Shown here one piece after another: positions 2,185 through 15,999 of a DNA stretch of 19,179 nt. A program made the position numbers and the translations under genes. This stretch comes from an uncultured Nitrososphaeraceae archaeon (GTDB taxonomy: Archaea > Thermoproteota > Nitrososphaeria > Nitrososphaerales > Nitrososphaeraceae). Location of the stretch: assembly GCA_963825865.1 (NCBI GenBank), contig CAWGVG010000050.1, forward strand, positions 1 through 19,179, read 5' to 3'. The notes under the pieces are model-generated. The model made no database searches. It saw only the letters and a list, made by a program, of their open reading frames with translations, and was not told the DNA's origin. The first letter of the stretch is position 1. Each line of letters opens with the position of its first letter.

Positions 2185-2487
2185 ATGATCTTAACAACAC
2201 AGCAAAGGGAAAGACTTGTTTTAGACCTTTACAATCAATGTAAAAACACACGCGGGATAGCTGAAGAAGACAGAATGTCATTTAGTGCTATAGGCGCTAT
2301 TCTGAAAAAAGCAGATAAAGAAAAGGAGGCACAGGCAGAGCAAGAACGAAAGCTATCTCTAGCCTCCCAGACTTACAAATTATTTTCAGAAGGTAAAACT
2401 TCACTACGAGTGGCCATTGCATTAAACCTAAGAAACGCGCGAGTAACTGAATTATACAAGACGAACACCTTCATTTATTCAAATTAG
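2185..2487 (+). CDS. HTH-domain hypothetical protein of a multi-copy Nitrososphaeraceae family, probably C-terminally truncated
   Basis: RERLVLDLYNQxKxTRxIAEExRMSFSAIGAILKK is an HTH-like unit. A second unit YKLFSEGKTSLRVAIALNL follows. Family assignment is from recall. Confidence 0.65.
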   Translation: MILTTQQRERLVLDLYNQCKNTRGIAEEDRMSFSAIGAILKKADKEKEAQAEQERKLSLASQTYKLFSEGKTSLRVAIALNLRNARVTELYKTNTFIYSN

Positions 2488-2513: not shown

Positions 2514-5321
2514 ATGTTCGAAAACAAGAATCATGATAACCCAACTATAAAAGTGGTAGCAGATCAAGAAATAGGAATAGGGGGGTCAAAGTCCAAACAA
2601 TCTAGACCGCCAACTTTACCCCCTTCTTCGGCAGATAGTCAAGATGATTCTGTAGCGGTGGTGTTCTCAAGTCAGAGAAGCCAGTTTGCAGATTACACAA
2701 CTTGGAAGGGTATCGAGAATAAGACCGGTATTGAACGGGAACATGCCTATGATTTTGTCCTGAAAGAACTGTTAGACAACGCTGTGGACTATTTAGAAAC
2801 TCAACATAACACAGTGCTCCTACTACTGCTGCTGACATACCACCACTAGAAATTCATGTCACCATCAAGAAACTAAAACCGCAGGAGAAGTTAATTCGTA
2901 TAGTGGTCAGTAATTCCAACTATGATACTTCCACTAGCAGCAGTATCAGCAAAGCCACATTTTCTAAACAGATTCTAAAGTCTATCTTCGATTTTGATAG
3001 ATACCATAGCAGCAAACGCAATCAGTTCAAAATAACAAAAGGCGCGCTAGGTGATGCTTTGAAGGAAGTCCTGTGCATTCCTCACGTTTTAGCACATGAC
3101 AGTGAAATAAACAACTGGGATTATCCATTAAAGATATATGCTGCTCAAAAAGTATTCCAGGTTTACCTTGCTATAGACAGAATAAATCAACTCGTTCATG
3201 CAAGGATAGATGATGAAGCCGATGATGACGCAGAGGTTACGTACTACGATAATACGAAAATAGAAGTCACTCTGCCGGTAGTTATTGTTGAAGGTCAAAA
3301 TAAAGACTACCTGATAACTAGGCTATATAACTATCTATGTAACTACGCAATCTTTGCAACCCACATAGGATTTTCGTTTGAGTATGAAAGTGATCAAGGA
3401 GGTCTTTATAGAATTCCCACAACTCCAAACTATCAATCCAAAATGGAAGAATCAAACCAGCATTTATTATTACAGGCGAAACCAGTTCCATGATTTTATT
3501 TTAGGACTGGAAAACAATGACTCGATAAGCTATAGCGTATTGTATAAAACATTCAGAGAAGCTAGCAACATGCGTAAAACCAATCTTACACAGATGACTG
3601 TTAGCCAGTTAAAACATTCTCCTGCCACACAGATAGGTTATATGATGAACTGCGAAATACCCATGAGTGCACCTACCGCTCTGACATTGCCATTTGATAT
3701 AACAAGAAAGGTGCAAGAGCACAGGCTATAAAGCAAAGGGTTGAGCAGACGTATGGACAATTTTCAGAAATGAAATACAGGTCGGAATCAGGCTATTTAA
3801 GTGAAAGCGGTGATGGTGATCAATCTCAGTTCCCCTTCTTCTTCGAGATTGCAATATTTCACGATGTGCAGAATCTGCGTGGTAATCTGGTCTTCAGACA
3901 GGCCTTAAATTGTTCGGCTATACCAATTACTGGCTCGACTGTATTTGGTGGAGAATTGTTTGAATGGGTTACTGCAGGCAGCAAATTTACATATACATCA
4001 AACACTATTCAAGATATTTTTCGACATTACGGCTATTCATATGATAATAAAAAATGTAAAAAGCCACGCAGCGTAATAATTGCAAACTTGATATCTCCAA
4101 AAATGGATTATCAGAGTTACGGTAAATCCAGAATAGATTTCAGGCCATTTGCTGATGTTATAGCGAAAACTACTGACTTGGCCTGTATGGGCGGCGGACG
4201 TGCTTCAGATGGAAAGCCTTCGAAGAGGGCTGTTCTATTGAAAATCTTGGAAAAAAGAAAACAGAAATGGGAATCAATGGACGCTGTATTAAGATTAAAA
4301 CATTGGTGGACTCAATCCGATGTATTCTATGCAACCCGTAAGATGCTAATAGAGTATCATTACGCAAATGAAGAAATTGACAGGGATTACATAACCGGAT
4401 TGGTCAAAGAAATCTGTGAAGATAAATTAGGTGTAAAGCGTGAAGACATAGGAATTTTAGCTGCTGACAGGGCACGCCTATACTTTAAAGGTAAATGGAT
4501 GGATGTCGGTCTCAAAGAGATTGAAGAGCAAAGTCTCTATGGTGTAGACATGCTAATTATCAAAAAGAGGTATTGCAGAGCAATTAGCATTGTTTGCAGA
4601 TCAGAAAGGAATTGCATTACTTAATACAAGAGGGTTTTTGACAGAATATGCTGAGATTCTATCTAGGAAATCCGAGAAAGAGGGATGCAACATTGCTATC
4701 TTAACTGACTTTGATGTTTCAGGTTTGATTTTGGCAACTAAAGTCCCTGGAGCCTATAGAATAGGAATTGACTTTGAAACATTAGATAAGCTTGGACTGG
4801 ATATTGAAGATGTAGAGGAGGAATACAGGCCTGGAAATCATTTAAAACCATTACAGGAAGGCGGAGAACTTGCTGATGTGTATCCACAAGATTGGGTGGA
4901 TTATGTTGAGAATAGACGTGTAGAGATTAATAGTGTCGTAACTGAACTAGATGATAATGCTAAATTCTGGGAATGGATTGTTCAAAAACTACGAGACAGA
5001 TTTGATACACGAAATTACAACCGTGCAGTTGATATTCCTGAATATGTGATGCCTAAATGTTTTGAATCTCTTACCAAAAAGACTAGAGAAGATAGGAAGT
5101 GGCATACTGAAAGAACAGCGTTTGAAAAACTACAGGACCGTCTCTCTGGTATTGGCCCTGGATTTCTATTTGACCGAACTGATAAGGTATTATTGAATAA
5201 AAGCGATGACATTATGACAATCAGTAAATACGAGCAAACGCTAGCTGATCAGTCACGACATATTATTGAATCCAATGAGATCATGAAACCAATCTTGGAT
5301 AAAATTGAAGATTTGGATTGA
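2514..5321 (+). CDS. Single-chain type IIB topoisomerase-like protein (Topo VI B+A fusion, Topo VIII-like), ~930 aa, interrupted by indels (ORF pieces 2514-2849, 2903-3493, 3378-3731, 3770-4624, 4590-5321)
   Basis: Motifs in order: GHKL N-box LKELLDNAVD; ATP-lid SSKRNQFKITKGALGDALKE; transducer-like FFEIAIF...VIIANLISPKMDYQSYGKSRID; WHD TQSDVFY (candidate catalytic Tyr, cf. Topo VIA/Spo11 RDxYY); Toprim LLNTRGF and ILTDFDVSG (DxD). The transducer and WHD motifs lie in one unbroken ORF (3770-4624), so the B-A fusion is seen directly. Confidence 0.75.
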
Positions 5322-5870: not shown

Positions 5871-6024
5871 TCAATTGATAACATACAATGCTGTTTCATT
5901 CATGTATTTTTTGATATTGGCCTGGCTTATTTGCAATATCCTGGATATCTCTGAGTGATTATGATCTCTGACTTGCTATCTCTAAGACCTTACTTCTACT
6001 ACATTCCAGAGTATTATTATTCAC
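5871..6024 (-). pseudogene. Decayed HTH-protein remnant (putative small-terminase-associated family)
   Basis: Minus-strand hand translation LECSRSKVLEIASQ / (frameshift) HNHSEISRILQISQANIKKYMNE resembles an HTH (SEISRILQISQ). It lies divergent from the terminase-like fragment. Confidence 0.5.
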
Positions 6025-6139
6025 ACGTGATGACAGAACTATATATGTCAGCTTGTATAACAAACCACTTACATACACACATACATATGACAATTTTTAT
6101 TTGTCTGGGAATGTAGTATTATCATCACCAGTATATAAT

Positions 6140-6420
6140 ATGTCTAAAAACCAATTTTTCGATTACCAGGAATTATTGTATGAGGCTCTGCTTACATCAG
6201 ACTTTTGCAATCCGCTGAACCATGATTTCAAAGACAAGCACCTGTGGATAAAGAAGGCAACAGGATTAGGGGTAACAGAGTTCTTTCTCAGGTTCATGGC
6301 ATGGCTTTGCTTGAGAAATAATGATTATAGAAATTCACAGATGTGCATTGTAACGGGTCCTAACATAGACATTGCCATCAAGCTAATCAAGAGAATGAAG
6401 TGATTATTTGAGCGAACTTG
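6140..6420 (+). pseudogene. N-terminal fragment of a terminase large subunit-like ATPase
   Basis: FDYQELLY (adenine-binding Q-motif region), HLWIKKATGLGVTEF (terminase-type Walker A), MCIVTGPNIDIAIKLI. An in-frame TGA at 6401-6403 is followed by LFE, then similarity is lost. No Walker B or nuclease domain. Confidence 0.6.
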
Positions 6421-9843: not shown

Positions 9844-12228
9844 ATGCGTGCAATTAACGAAGAACAAATGGAACCTAAATTTGCAGACAAATCATGGAAT
9901 CCTGCTGTTGAGCAGACCATTTGGAAAAAATGGGAAGATAACAGTATTTACCAATTTTCAATAATAGAACAGAAACATGCTTTTGTAATTGATAGTCCTC
10001 CCCCATATCCATCAGGAAGACCTTGGCATATTGGAGCCGCAGCTCACTACGCCCAAATAGATATGATCGCCAGGCTTGCCAGAATGATGGAGTACAATGT
10101 CATTTTTCCAATAGGCATCGATAGAAATGGTTTGCCAGTGGAGATTTATACAGAAAAGAGACATAAAATTAGAATGAGACTGATGGATAGGGAAAAATTC
10201 CTTGACCTCTGCAGAGTTGCTCTCGATGATCTGGAAACAGAAATGATCCAGATAATGAAAAGCATAGGTATAAGTGCCAACTTTAAAGAATATTATCGCA
10301 CTGATTCAGATGAATTTCGGTCGCTAACACAGAGTACATTTATCGATCTGTGGAATCGTGGCCTCGTATATCTTGCAAATAGACCAAACAATTATTGTCC
10401 AGATTGCGAAACTACAATAGCAGATGCAGAAATCATCTATGGTGACGTTCCTACACAGCTTGTTTATATTTATTTTAAGGTTAAGGGAACTGATGATAAT
10501 ATTGCTGTTGCTTCTACTAGGCCAGAATTGCTTTTTGCATGTCAGTCCATTATCGTTAATCCAAAAGACGAACGTTATGTGAAGATACAAGGAAAGTATG
10601 TCATATTGCCTATATTTAATAGAGAAGTTAAGGTCTTGTCACATCATTCTGTAAATCCTGAATTTGGTTCAGGTATCGTGATGGTATGCAGTTATGGTGA
10701 CAAGAATGATGTGCATATATTTAGAGAATTAGGATTAGAAGAGATTGTAGCGTTAAATAAGAACGGAATAACAACTGTGGCAGCAGGACCGTATGCTAAT
10801 CTTCGTGTAAATCAAGCAAGGACGAGAATCATTGAAGATTTGAAAAATGCTGGTCTTGTTGAAAAAGAAGAAAGTATCATGCATAGAACACCGTTATGTG
10901 AACGGAGCAAAACACCAATTGAAATAATACCATTACAAGATTATTATATAAAACAACTTAATTATATTCCATACCTAAAAGAAATTGCAATGAAAATTAA
11001 ATTCCATCCTGAAATGCATAGACAAATTTTGCTTAACTGGCTCGATTCAGTAGCAATCGATTGGCCGATCTCAAGAAGACGATTTTATGGTACCGAAATT
11101 CCAATATGGTATTGTAATAACTGTCAAACTCCAAACCTTCCAAATCCTGGCAAATACTATCGTCCATGGAAAGAAAATCCTCCGTTTGAAAAATGCAAGA
11201 AATGTTTCAGTACCTGAATTTAGCGGTGAAGACAGAACGTTTGATACTTGGATGGATTCTAGCATCACCCCATTATTTATTACAAAATATAAAAAGGATC
11301 AAAGGTTTCACAATTCCACATATCCTACACAAATAAGACCTCAAGCAAAAGATATCGTAAGAACGTGGCTTTACTATACAATTCTGCGCTGCTTCCAGCT
11401 ACAGATAAGCAACCATGGTCTGATGCCTGGATTATGGGATATGGTATAGACGAGAAGGGTGAAAAGATGAGCAAAAGTAAAGGAAATGTGATTGACCCAT
11501 TTCCTATTATTCATCGATATGGAGCAGACACTTTCCGATTCTGGTCTGCAAGTGAAGTTAATTTGGGACAGGACTTTCGATGTTCTGAACAGAGAATTGC
11601 AAGTGCACAGAAATTCTTATCAAAATTATGGAATGTTGCTAGATTTATTTCTTCGTTTGATGTTATTTCAGACACACCTAGGCAACTTGCTATATCTGAT
11701 AGATGGATTATTGCGGAATTGTCAAACCTGATTGAAGAATGCAAGAAAGGCTTTCATGACTTTAATTTCTTCATTCCAGCAAATGCAATTAGAGAATTTA
11801 CGTCGAATCTATTTGCATCTCATTATATAGAAATGGTAAAAGGTCGTGTGTATGGTTCAACAGATGAATCTGGACAGAAATCCGCCATATCCACCCTGCA
11901 CAAATGTCTGTCAACAATTTTATTATTACTGGCACCCATATGTCCATTCATTACAGAAGAACTCTGGACAACAATTTACTCTAGCAAGAGCATCCATTTA
12001 CAGCACGTACCTCAATCACAAATGAACTATAATGAGCTTACAAAGCATACTAAACAGATTATGGATTTCAACTCGATTGTGTGGAACAAGAAAAAAGAGA
12101 CTATTTCAAAGGGAACTGGAAAAGCACTTTCTCTGAAAGACTCTATAGATATCGCTGTTCCTGCTGATTTGGAGCCATTTAAAGAAGATCTTCAGATTAT
12201 GCATAATTTGAAAAGTGAAAGTAGATGA
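9844..12228 (+). CDS. valS: Valyl-tRNA synthetase, archaeal type (two indels near 11200 and 11400; start may be 9868)
   Basis: DSPPPYPSGRPWHIG (HIGH-like), DWPISRRRFYGTEIPIW, TFDTWMDSS, RPQAKDIVRTW, KMSKSKGN, and an anticodon-binding domain. Confidence 0.95.
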
Positions 12229-12896: not shown

Positions 12897-13990
12897 TGGT
12901 AGGCTAAGTAACATGTGTCACCCCTTCTGCACAATAAGCAAAGTGAGAATAAATGATTATTGTACAAGGAGAGGTGTACCTAGAAGAATGGCATATAGCC
13001 ATATTAAAGAATGAACCAGAGTCTGTTAGAAAGCGATATCATGCAATAGCTAGAACTCTGGTCAGTGACATTGTCAGAATAACTAGACAAGAACTGCTGA
13101 CATGATTGATAGAAGTAGACGTCAACTGCAGAGAATAGTAAAAAGATTCAGAGAAGAAGGCATAAAAGGTCTGAGATTTAAATCCAAAAAGCCATACAAT
13201 ATCTTAAACAAAACACCCATAGAGATCGAGAAAAGGATAATCAAAGTAAGAAAAGCTACGGGTTTTGGTTCTGAACAGCTAGCAAACATAGTTAATGAGA
13301 GTTTGAATGTAGAACACAAATATAATCGGCATATCAGCAAGACCACAGCTTACAACATTCTCGTCAGATACGAATTGGTTGATGCAGAGAAAAAGATGGT
13401 AAAAGAATACGAATCATTTGAGCGAGATAAGCCTGATGAATTAATACAGGCTGACCTCACAAGATTTAATGGATTACCAATATTAACAATGGAAGACGAC
13501 CATTCCAGAAAGTTCTGGGCTGCAAGACTGGACAATGAAAGAGATGATACCGTGATAGCGACTATGACGAAACTACATGGCCAGAAATACGATTATCTTT
13601 TGACTGACAATGGTAGTCAATTCAGTAGAAGAAATTCTGTTATGAAAAGATATTGCAAACAGTATCTGAGTGAGAAACATATCTGGACATCGGTACATCA
13701 CCCTCAAACAATGGGTAAACTATCAAACGCTCAGAAAGGATTGAAAAGATTCCTTATCTACAGACTTGGATGGAGCAAAGATTCACAGTCGGTAGATGAA
13801 AGTATATCAATTTATATTGACTGGTACAACAATGGTAAGAAAATATCAACTACTGGTTACTATCCAGAAGAAAGATACTCAGAAAAGAGATACTGAATGT
13901 TATACAAGACTAGTAAAAGCACTTAAGCTTGATAACATATTACCAATACCAGTTGCAGTAGTGGGATGACATGTGTTCCTTGGTTTTACA
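12897..13990 (+). mobile_element. IS481-family insertion sequence (~1.09 kb)
   Basis: Imperfect terminal inverted repeats: left TGGTAGGCTAAGTAACATGTGTCACCCC vs reverse complement of right TGTAAAACCAAGGAACACATGTCATCCC (19/28). Right end is ...ACA. Flanked by an exact 16-bp direct repeat. Confidence 0.85.
12953..13969 (+). CDS. IS481-family (rve/integrase-core) transposase, with indels near 13095 and 13890
   Basis: N-terminal piece from ATG 12953 (MIIVQGEVYLEEWH...TRQE) joins AADMIDRSRRQLQRIVKRF (HTH). Core FERDKPDELIQAD, LTDNGSQF, HPQTMGK, WYN. A shifted frame continues to TGA 13967-13969. Confidence 0.85.
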
Positions 13991-15720: not shown

Positions 15721-15890
15721 GAACATCGACTATTATACAAATGGGGTTTCAGTCCTAAAGTACCCAGAATGAGATTTGTTAATGCTGCATCAAAGGAAGA
15801 AAAAGGCAAATTTCGAAAAAAGCTAAAAGGATAATCTCGCATATACCTAAAGGATTCACTGTCGCTGTTGCTGCTGATTAATCCATCTTT
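15721..15890 (+). pseudogene. IS630-family transposase remnant spanning the ORF-A/ORF-B junction
   Basis: HRLLYKWGFSPKVPRMRFVNAASKEEKGKFRKK (IS630 winged-helix region), slippery A AAA AAG at 15816-15822, then -1 frame KAKRIISHIPKGFTVAVAAD*SIF (first DDE Asp motif DESxF, with the Glu codon now TAA). Confidence 0.7.
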
Positions 15891-15999
15891 ACAATACTCA
15901 TTGAGAAGCCCCCATTGCAAGTTAACCATATGTGAACAAGATATAATCAACCGAATCAGATGGTAACGTATAATATTTTGCAATCTCGAAACAAAAGAA

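Follow-up and report, generated by a model that had tools for sequence, protein, structure and literature searches.

A frame-disrupted gene for a probable single-chain, Topo VIII-like type IIB topoisomerase and its family in soil Nitrososphaeria

The window analysed here is the whole of a 19,179-nt contig (CAWGVG010000050.1, called C50 below) of an uncultured Nitrososphaeraceae archaeon. Its positions 2514 to 5321 contain a frame-disrupted gene which we consider likely to be one copy of a single-chain type IIB DNA topoisomerase (Topo) gene of the Topo VIII kind, belonging to a separate, large clade. Intact relatives combine in one polypeptide a N-terminal half composed of a Topo VI-B-like GHKL ATPase, an H2TH domain and a transducer with the switch Lys, and a C-terminal half composed of a Top6A/Spo11-like 5Y-CAP with an invariant Tyr and a Toprim domain whose Glu and DxD motif are invariant. 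A first-pass annotation made from the sequence alone had proposed a hidden single-polypeptide, Topo VIII-like type IIB enzyme on a thaumarchaeal branch, and this proposal is supported by fused homologues, by Topo VI-B and Top6A matches, by Topo VIII profiles and by a tree.

Of the type II topoisomerases, Topo VIII is the one least understood. The main-text Table 1 of Takahashi 2020 (PMC7671362) contains four archaeal Topo VIII, all from Euryarchaeota, and three Topo VIII enzymes have been assayed, all weakly active and none of them archaeal (PMC8185306, PMC11894792). One type IIB enzyme is listed for Nitrososphaera viennensis in a 2021 review (PMC8185306), and a survey of thaumarchaeal mobile elements mentions type IA topoisomerases only (PMC6563490). 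No thaumarchaeal Topo VIII was found in the literature covered, which includes the Topo VIII papers published since 2021 (PMC11894792, PMC11302465); subscription journals and the supplementary tables of PMC7671362 lie outside this coverage. With the family described here, Topo VIII-like enzymes would reach into the TACK archaea, in ecologically important soil ammonia oxidisers, and structural studies would gain a wealth of natural sequences. The family also constitutes a natural experiment on the type IIB ATP site, in which a residue needed for the ATP-dependent activity of the Paenibacillus polymyxa enzyme is changed and its partner residues are conserved.

The broken gene and its intact relatives

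Five open reading frames (ORFs), all on the forward strand and alternating between two frames, make up the gene (Table 1). They had been read at first pass as pieces of one broken gene and, consistent with this, the intact proteins P0047 (918 aa, amino acids), P0048 (909 aa) and P0053 (947 aa) are colinear with them throughout. Compared with the window by tblastn, these proteins span the whole stretch in frames 3, 2, 3, 2, 3, with segment identities of 72-93%; the E-value is 0.0 on the long segments, so that the alignment is not a product of chance. The family profile also matches the window copy (E-value 1.6e-177), across 8 stops. When the fourth piece was used to look for longer relatives, 106 proteins were retrieved, the nearest being P0047 (88% identity) and P0048 (89%), both intact single chains. 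The GHKL, transducer, winged-helix Tyr and Toprim motifs initially noticed were all located, in B-then-A order, and the junction between the B-like and A-like halves does lie inside a single ORF (3770-4624), where the switch Lys marks the end of B and the Tyr the start of A. A Pfam scan of the five ORF pieces gave no family above the cut-off, the best match being DUF2399 (the JetD Toprim) on the last piece with an E-value of 0.005.

The frame breaks were also confirmed, but the first-pass count of only four junctions proved too low: the window copy contains at least nine small indels (at ~2814, ~3399, ~3625, ~3661, ~3703, 4562, 4568, ~5082-5104 and ~5125). Four of these sites form two compensating frameshift pairs hidden in seemingly intact ORFs (~3625/~3661 in the third piece and ~5082-5104/~5125 in the fifth). 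Programmed frameshifting was considered and rejected, because at least nine shifts are too many, they share no common motif and the homologues do without them. One break falls on the Toprim Glu, where the first-pass annotation had restored two missing G bases within 4558-4575. Two bases are indeed missing: the P0048 counterpart of this stretch is IIEKEGIAEQLALFADQKGIALLNTRGF, and the repaired peptide IIEKEGIAEQLALFA corresponds to P0048 residues 652-666, every letter being identical. The paralogous contig C3 has an extra base after ATC and another inside GAGG, and so supplies the bases missing at 4562 and 4568; the second of them is, however, A and not G, which gives a synonymous Glu codon. 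Related soil contigs, compared as relatives of the window only, carry an additional A at 4560 and an additional G at 4568.

Table 1. Features of the topoisomerase-like gene and of its immediate surroundings in the window.
Feature	Position	Strand	Remarks
Frame-disrupted ~910-950-aa single-chain type IIB (Topo VIII-like) topoisomerase gene	2514..5321	+	colinear with intact homologues
Piece 1: N-terminus and beginning of GHKL fold	2514..2849	+	homology stops near 2813
N-box KELLDNAVD	2763-2789	+	piece 1
Piece 2: remainder of GHKL fold	2828..3395 (ORF 2903-3493)	+	
G1 region VVSNSN	2903-2920	+	piece 2; without Asp
ATP-lid HSSKRNQ	3005-3025	+	piece 2
G2 box GALGDA	3041-3058	+	piece 2
Piece 3: H2TH-like region	3405..3710 (ORF 3378-3731)	+	YKTFREASNM at 3543-3572
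Piece 4: transducer and 5Y-CAP	3716..4567 (ORF 3770-4624)	+	
Switch-Lys motif QSYGKS	4112-4129	+	piece 4, transducer
Catalytic Tyr motif TQSDVFYATR	4310-4339	+	piece 4, 5Y-CAP
Break at Toprim Glu	4557..4575	+	two bases missing; IIEKEG becomes IIKKR
Piece 5: Toprim, T2BI box and helical C-terminal extension	4569..5321 (ORF 4590-5321)	+	
Toprim motif TDFDVSG	4704-4724	+	piece 5
T2BI box RVEINSV	4917-4937	+	piece 5
100-aa helix-turn-helix ORF	2185..2487	+	27 nt before topoisomerase start codon; weak helix-turn-helix matches
Fragment of multi-copy terminase-large-subunit-like gene	5972..6403	+	21 genome places by tblastn

Intact family members are 909-1037 aa long and carry the B-like and then the A-like half in one polypeptide, with a Topo VIII-type RVE[IL][ND]S box followed by a helical tail of 130-190 residues. 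As proxy we used P0001 (1004 aa), located at a contig end in a related genome, the full form of which is P0002 (1037 aa). Split forms exist too (301 + 619 aa in genome G022), as they do among published Topo VIII (PMC7671362). The genes are currently annotated as 'hypothetical', 'RNase M5' or 'toprim domain protein'.

Two alignments were used as profiles, A1 (27 homologues) and A3 (a narrower family alignment). Searched against all PDB sequences, A1 gave seven matches at E-values up to 10, and the top five are Topo VI subunit B. The match to 1z59 (Topo VI-B, E-value 3.3e-8) covers the GHKL and H2TH domains together with a transducer segment containing the switch Lys; in S. shibatae Topo VI-B, the counterpart of this residue lies in the KxxGK motif. 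Structure searches with models of intact proxies point the same way for both halves. The AlphaFold model of the whole protein (predicted local distance difference test, pLDDT, 78) has 1z5a_B (Topo VI-B) as its top Foldseek match (E-value 7e-17), and Topo VI-B structures, with template-modelling (TM) scores of 0.57-0.61 on the target, rank above gyrase B and MutL. For the A-half model (C-terminal 480 residues, pLDDT 88), the top Foldseek match is Top6A of M. jannaschii (1d3y, E-value 3.7e-4). Aligned with VIA-align against 48,161 chains, the same half retrieves three archaeal Top6A at Z 15.5, 14.7 and 13.5, then the MksG nuclease 8b7f (Z 11.6) and Spo11 8uru (Z 11.5), the next value being 6.6.

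Relation to Topo VIII and the altered ATP site

Searched by tblastn against 72,556 plasmids, P0001 has a single match, a 906-aa 'hypothetical protein' of Halalkalicoccus jeotgali B3 plasmid 5 (E-value 0.05). This plasmid is named as the carrier of an archaeal Topo VIII (Gadelle 2014, PMC4117785) and the 906-aa protein, used as query, recovers the published bacterial Topo VIII plasmids. Profile-profile alignment (hhalign) with the H. jeotgali Topo VIII gives a probability of 99.4 for A1 (E-value 1.1e-21, 643 columns) and of 99.1 for A3 (E-value 4.2e-19, 687 columns), and these matches extend from the N-box to past the Toprim domain. A3 also aligns with the biochemically characterised P. polymyxa Topo VIII (probability 96.1, E-value 3.7e-9, 602 columns), against E-values of 0.017 and 0.008 for the Top6B and Top6A encoded in the genome of the window. 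Profile comparison thus places the family much nearer to bona fide Topo VIII than to the Topo VI of its own genome. The nearest ESM Atlas clusters (0.97-0.98) are bacterial or phage fusions of TOP6A_Toprim and HATPase_c, 745-875 aa long.

An A-domain tree (IQ-TREE, LG+C20, 282 columns) was built from 31 family rows, four Topo VIII and 15 Top6A from the phylum; 11 of the 42 family rows, missed by the motif filter, and Mini-A were left out. Each group is monophyletic, with support of 100/99 for the family, 98/89 for Topo VIII and 100/100 for Top6A. Both G2 types are represented in the Topo VIII set, so that the family does not fall inside these four sequences; it would form its own clade beside Topo VIII, as far as a small sample with long stems can indicate.

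Residue conservation was counted over the 117 family proteins of at least 800 aa. The catalytic Tyr, the Toprim Glu, both Asp of the DxD motif, the Gly of DxDxxG and the switch Lys are present in 117/117. The N-box Glu and the N-box Asn are each found in 105, the Arg at Tyr+3 in 107, and the R and E of the T2BI box in 109 and 112, respectively. Two other positions depart from the published enzymes: at the G1 position, 105 proteins have Asn, three Asp, one Ser and one Gly (gap in seven), and at Tyr-4, 107 have Ser and one has Arg.

Several observations weigh against placing the gene with Topo VIII. As assembled, the window copy cannot be translated and is itself broken. Pfam, NCBIfam and PADLOC gave sub-threshold matches only: the NCBIfam Topo VI-B model scores 18-28 bits on the N-terminus (cut-off 274), the Topo VI-A model 19-25 bits on the Toprim of the same chains (cut-off 424), and Pfam TOP6A Toprim 14 bits (cut-off 24). 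The G1 box reads N-[ST]-N in the family, having lost the Asp and both Gly, as opposed to DxGxG in all four fetched Topo VIII and in the genome's own Top6B, and Tyr-4 is Ser where published type IIB enzymes have Arg or His. By tblastn, P0048 has no match in plasmids (E-value up to 0.01) or phages (up to 1). With respect to a mobile element, no tRNA was detected in the window or in the 19 kb upstream on C3, no integrase among the ORFs of at least 110 aa there, and no attachment (att) site, and the flanking genes are ordinary chromosomal ones. Finally, a tree with four Topo VIII, no Mini-A and long stems has too little resolution to place the family as sister of Topo VIII or of another group.

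The Asp of the G1 box is the adenine-binding residue of all GHKL enzymes. A few deep-branching relatives (P0228, P0243) retain DNGxG, so the loss of DxGxG in the family looks like a derived state as judged from these sequences. The D61A mutation abolishes the ATP-dependent relaxation activity of P. polymyxa Topo VIII, the Microscilla Topo VIII relaxes DNA without ATP, and the Ammonifex enzyme shows cleavage only (Gadelle 2014, PMC4117785). From the change of the G1 Asp to Asn and the effect of D61A we infer that ATP dependence has been altered or lost. By analogy with Topo VIII, the protein would act as a homodimer in which the Tyr from one subunit would work with the Mg2+-binding Toprim from its partner to cut both DNA strands and the GHKL halves would form the N-gate; with Asn at the adenine-binding position, it would relax or cleave DNA independently of ATP or with an altered nucleotide, like the Microscilla and Ammonifex enzymes. 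A more elaborate version of this view is possible if somewhat unlikely: the family would be a third single-chain type IIB lineage, distributed over soil Nitrososphaeria, with the adenine-binding Asp replaced and the other ATPase and cleavage residues kept under selection, acting as an ATP-free or other-nucleotide topoisomerase or DNA breaker of an undefined mobile element. If true, this would provide a prokaryotic parallel to the Spo11/TopoVIB-like machinery.

The same residues bear on a different proposal, which we regard as unlikely, namely a double-strand-breaking enzyme without strand passage, resembling Spo11 with Top6BL, whose GHKL part would no longer bind ATP but would be regulatory or dimerising, and which would serve a mobile element by cutting DNA for integration, resolution or killing of competitors. 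The replacement of the G1 Asp by Asn in 105/117 proteins and the loss of both Gly fit such an enzyme, as do the effect of D61A on the ATP-dependent P. polymyxa activity, the cleavage-only Ammonifex enzyme (PMC4117785) and the degenerate ATP boxes that accompany break-making Topo VI-like enzymes (Takahashi 2020, PMC7671362). However, the N-box catalytic Glu and Mg-binding Asn, the SSKR lid, the G2 box and the switch Lys are all kept (in 105 to 117 of the 117 proteins), so that a loss of nucleotide binding is hard to explain, and an Asn could still contact the base.

An ATPase joined to a Toprim nuclease, acting in defence or as a nuclease like JetD/MksG (Wadjet) or OLD/Gabija and not as a topoisomerase, is in our opinion very improbable. 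This alternative, also raised by the first-pass annotation, drew sub-threshold matches only, all on the Toprim part (DUF2399/JetD, E-values 0.005 and 2.4e-4; PADLOC JetD, 6e-4 to 0.013), in addition to the MksG structure 8b7f. The MksG alignment covers residues 98-407 of the model, that is the Toprim, whereas the Top6A alignment covers residues 1-410 including the 5Y-CAP, at a higher Z; moreover, the Tyr is invariant, the N-terminal half is Topo VI-B-like and neither SMC- nor ABC-like, and the profile matches to Topo VIII are colinear over the full length. No SMC-type or JetABC-type family was seen among the scanned ORFs of the window and of the related loci, no Wadjet-specific search having been run. 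As for five separate, unrelated small genes bearing motifs by chance, a reading in line with ORF calling, which yields five pieces none of which exceeds a Pfam cut-off, it is practically untenable and is refuted by the colinear intact single proteins that cover the five pieces in order at 84-93% identity and by the 106 longer homologues.

Distribution, gene copies and genomic context

At E-values up to 0.001, 713 clusters (50% identity) match P0001, and 415 do so at 1e-10. In contigs representing one genome per species, 17 loci were found, all in Nitrososphaeraceae, Nitrosopolaris, Nitrososphaerales, 'Nitrosopumilales' or unclassified Thermoproteota metagenome-assembled genomes, and most of them on short contigs. 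With the fifth piece as query, 7 of 41 relatives gave matches, the genome itself included (6/24 in the same family, 0/16 in other families of the order), and the family profile matched 3 of 201 genomes of the class at E-values up to 1e-10. Within the data searched, the topoisomerase-like family is confined to soil Nitrososphaeria. In the genome of the window, some twelve places match, most of them as fragments. On contig C6, one paralogue stops directly after the Toprim Glu motif IIEKEGIAEQL at an ORF of the insertion sequence (IS) family IS630 (locus L021, C6:68000-76000); the C-terminal remainder is found at a distance of 43 kb, next to a second IS630-family transposase ORF (locus L024, C6:25000-31000). 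Patchy and often multi-copy, the gene is suggested to be an accessory or mobile-element gene. Topo VIII is encoded by plasmids or integrated mobile elements. For the mobile-element branch envisaged at first pass, copy number, patchiness, the IS-disrupted paralogue and, at one locus, an adjacent primase-helicase are suggestive, but borders of an element were not found. A Top6A match in an 835-aa open frame, about double the usual length, was also observed at locus L052 (G053:C22), possibly owing to fusion or read-through.

Comparison with C3 was used to weigh a pseudogene against an assembly artefact as the explanation of the window copy. C50 as a whole is a duplicate of C3:95804-114483, 93.8% identical over 18,789 columns, with a mosaic divergence of 1 to ~200 differences per kb. 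Substitutions between the two contigs fall mainly on third codon positions, both in the topoisomerase-like gene (1st 50, 2nd 28, 3rd 101) and in the gene of valyl-tRNA synthetase (ValRS; 1st 94, 2nd 57, 3rd 253). This bias indicates real diverged alleles under selection, and C50 and C3 appear to represent two strains assembled together or recombined alleles, and not noise. For the most part, their indels do not coincide. Two frameshifts, near 11.20 and 11.40 kb and outside homopolymer runs, split the essential ValRS gene (window 9844-12228), and the sole other ValRS locus (C3:105.3-107.6 kb) is worse, being in many pieces. As an essential gene is left without an intact copy, the assembly clearly contains indel errors, and further ordinary genes nearby are likewise split. 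In favour of real decay, the topoisomerase-like gene has 9 indels in 2.8 kb, whereas the genes around it have 3 in 5.4 kb (P 0.005 by a rough binomial estimate), and other family copies of the genome are truly disrupted (IS630). Public sequencing runs were searched for the window sequence, the best run containing 0.23 of its words and none of them half. Assembly errors and real decay are, for the window indels, about equally probable.

The neighbours of the topoisomerase-like gene vary from locus to locus and include Rad50-Mre11-HerA-NurA genes, a Y-family polymerase, P450, a GH1 glycosidase and, once, a primase-helicase. Two protein families of 330-440 aa without Pfam match, F3 and F4, are encoded directly upstream of it in seven loci (L018, L021, L028, L031, L032, L033 and L040), and their frames abut or overlap the topoisomerase gene in L032, L018, L031 and L033. 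They may be functional partners of the topoisomerase-like protein; neither is encoded in the window. The stretch holding the helix-turn-helix ORF (Table 1) recurs at nine other loci of the genome, with 66-82% DNA identity.

Terminase-like debris had been noticed near the gene, and it corresponds to the fragment listed in Table 1. Intact terminase-like copies of 513-517 aa lie at C59:13048-14598 (reverse strand) and C4:29411-30949 (forward strand), and match the PHROG 2 terminase large subunit with E-values of 1.8e-19 and 4.5e-18. Such a number of stand-alone terminase-like genes is unusual for a single archaeal genome. Further downstream, the genes of the window are ordinary (QueD, QueC, ValRS, UbiX, XPB). 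An IS481-family transposase ORF (13102-13896; E-value 2e-33, below the curated cut-off) lies within one of the stretches most divergent between C50 and C3. Finally, a 166-bp repeat (15728-15893), which may be a miniature transposable element, shares ~97% identity with copies on C6 and C23 and 83-91% with further ones.

Comparison with known type IIB and Toprim systems

JetD/MksG nucleases have the Toprim fold in common with the family, as reflected in the Z of 11.6 and in the sub-threshold DUF2399 matches. They differ in that the family has a GHKL half and in that the likeness to MksG is limited to the Toprim, whereas the Top6A matches also cover the 5Y-CAP with its Tyr. With the Spo11/TopoVIB-like machinery, the family shares the fold of the cleavage core (8uru, Z 11.5) and a GHKL part in which an ATP-binding box is degenerate; it is nevertheless prokaryotic and single-chain, and the remainder of its ATPase site is conserved.

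Mini-A proteins are A-only, ~300 aa long, with the T2BI box xWELDAL (Takahashi 2020, PMC7671362). Like them, the family has a 5Y-CAP and Toprim core without the Top6A N-terminus, and it weakly matches PHROG 6247 'DNA topoisomerase' (E-value 0.0085); unlike them, it possesses a complete B half and a box of the RVE type. Against the viral structures of BFVD, the A-half model gave 0 Foldseek matches at E-values up to 0.001, so that a link to viral Mini-A is neither shown nor excluded.

Topo VI is composed of the same folds (GHKL, H2TH, transducer, 5Y-CAP and Toprim) and the genome has a canonical Top6B-Top6A pair, intact, on contig C14. Its subunits are separate, whereas the halves are fused in the family, which falls below the curated thresholds of the Topo VI families. 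Structural alignment begins at about residue 70 of Top6A, and the N-terminal part that binds Top6B therefore appears, on the model, to be missing.

Resemblance to Topo VIII extends to the single chain with B-then-A order, the N-box ELxDN, a G2 box of the GxxGxA type that archaeal Topo VIII also have, the switch Lys, the catalytic Tyr with Arg at +3 (TQSDVFYATR), the Toprim E with DxDxxG, and the C-terminal extension. The features given as discriminating between subfamilies include a Topo VIII-specific Arg at Tyr+3 and Arg or His at -4 (Takahashi 2020, PMC7671362). The T2BI box (RVEINSV in the window and P0048, RIEIDSV in P0001) is a variant of the Topo VIII motif rather than the exact word, next to RVEINAF in H. 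jeotgali, RVELNSM in P. polymyxa and the published RVELNAM; RVE[IL]N[AS] is the pattern in common. Besides the G1 box and the Ser at Tyr-4, the family differs from Topo VIII by its greater length (~900-1090 aa versus 751-906) and by its Nitrososphaeria hosts, compared with the four Euryarchaeota of the published archaeal Topo VIII. Considering these likenesses and differences together, this large protein group in soil ammonia-oxidising archaea, undescribed in the literature searched, is best filed as a divergent Topo VIII variant with an unusual ATP site.

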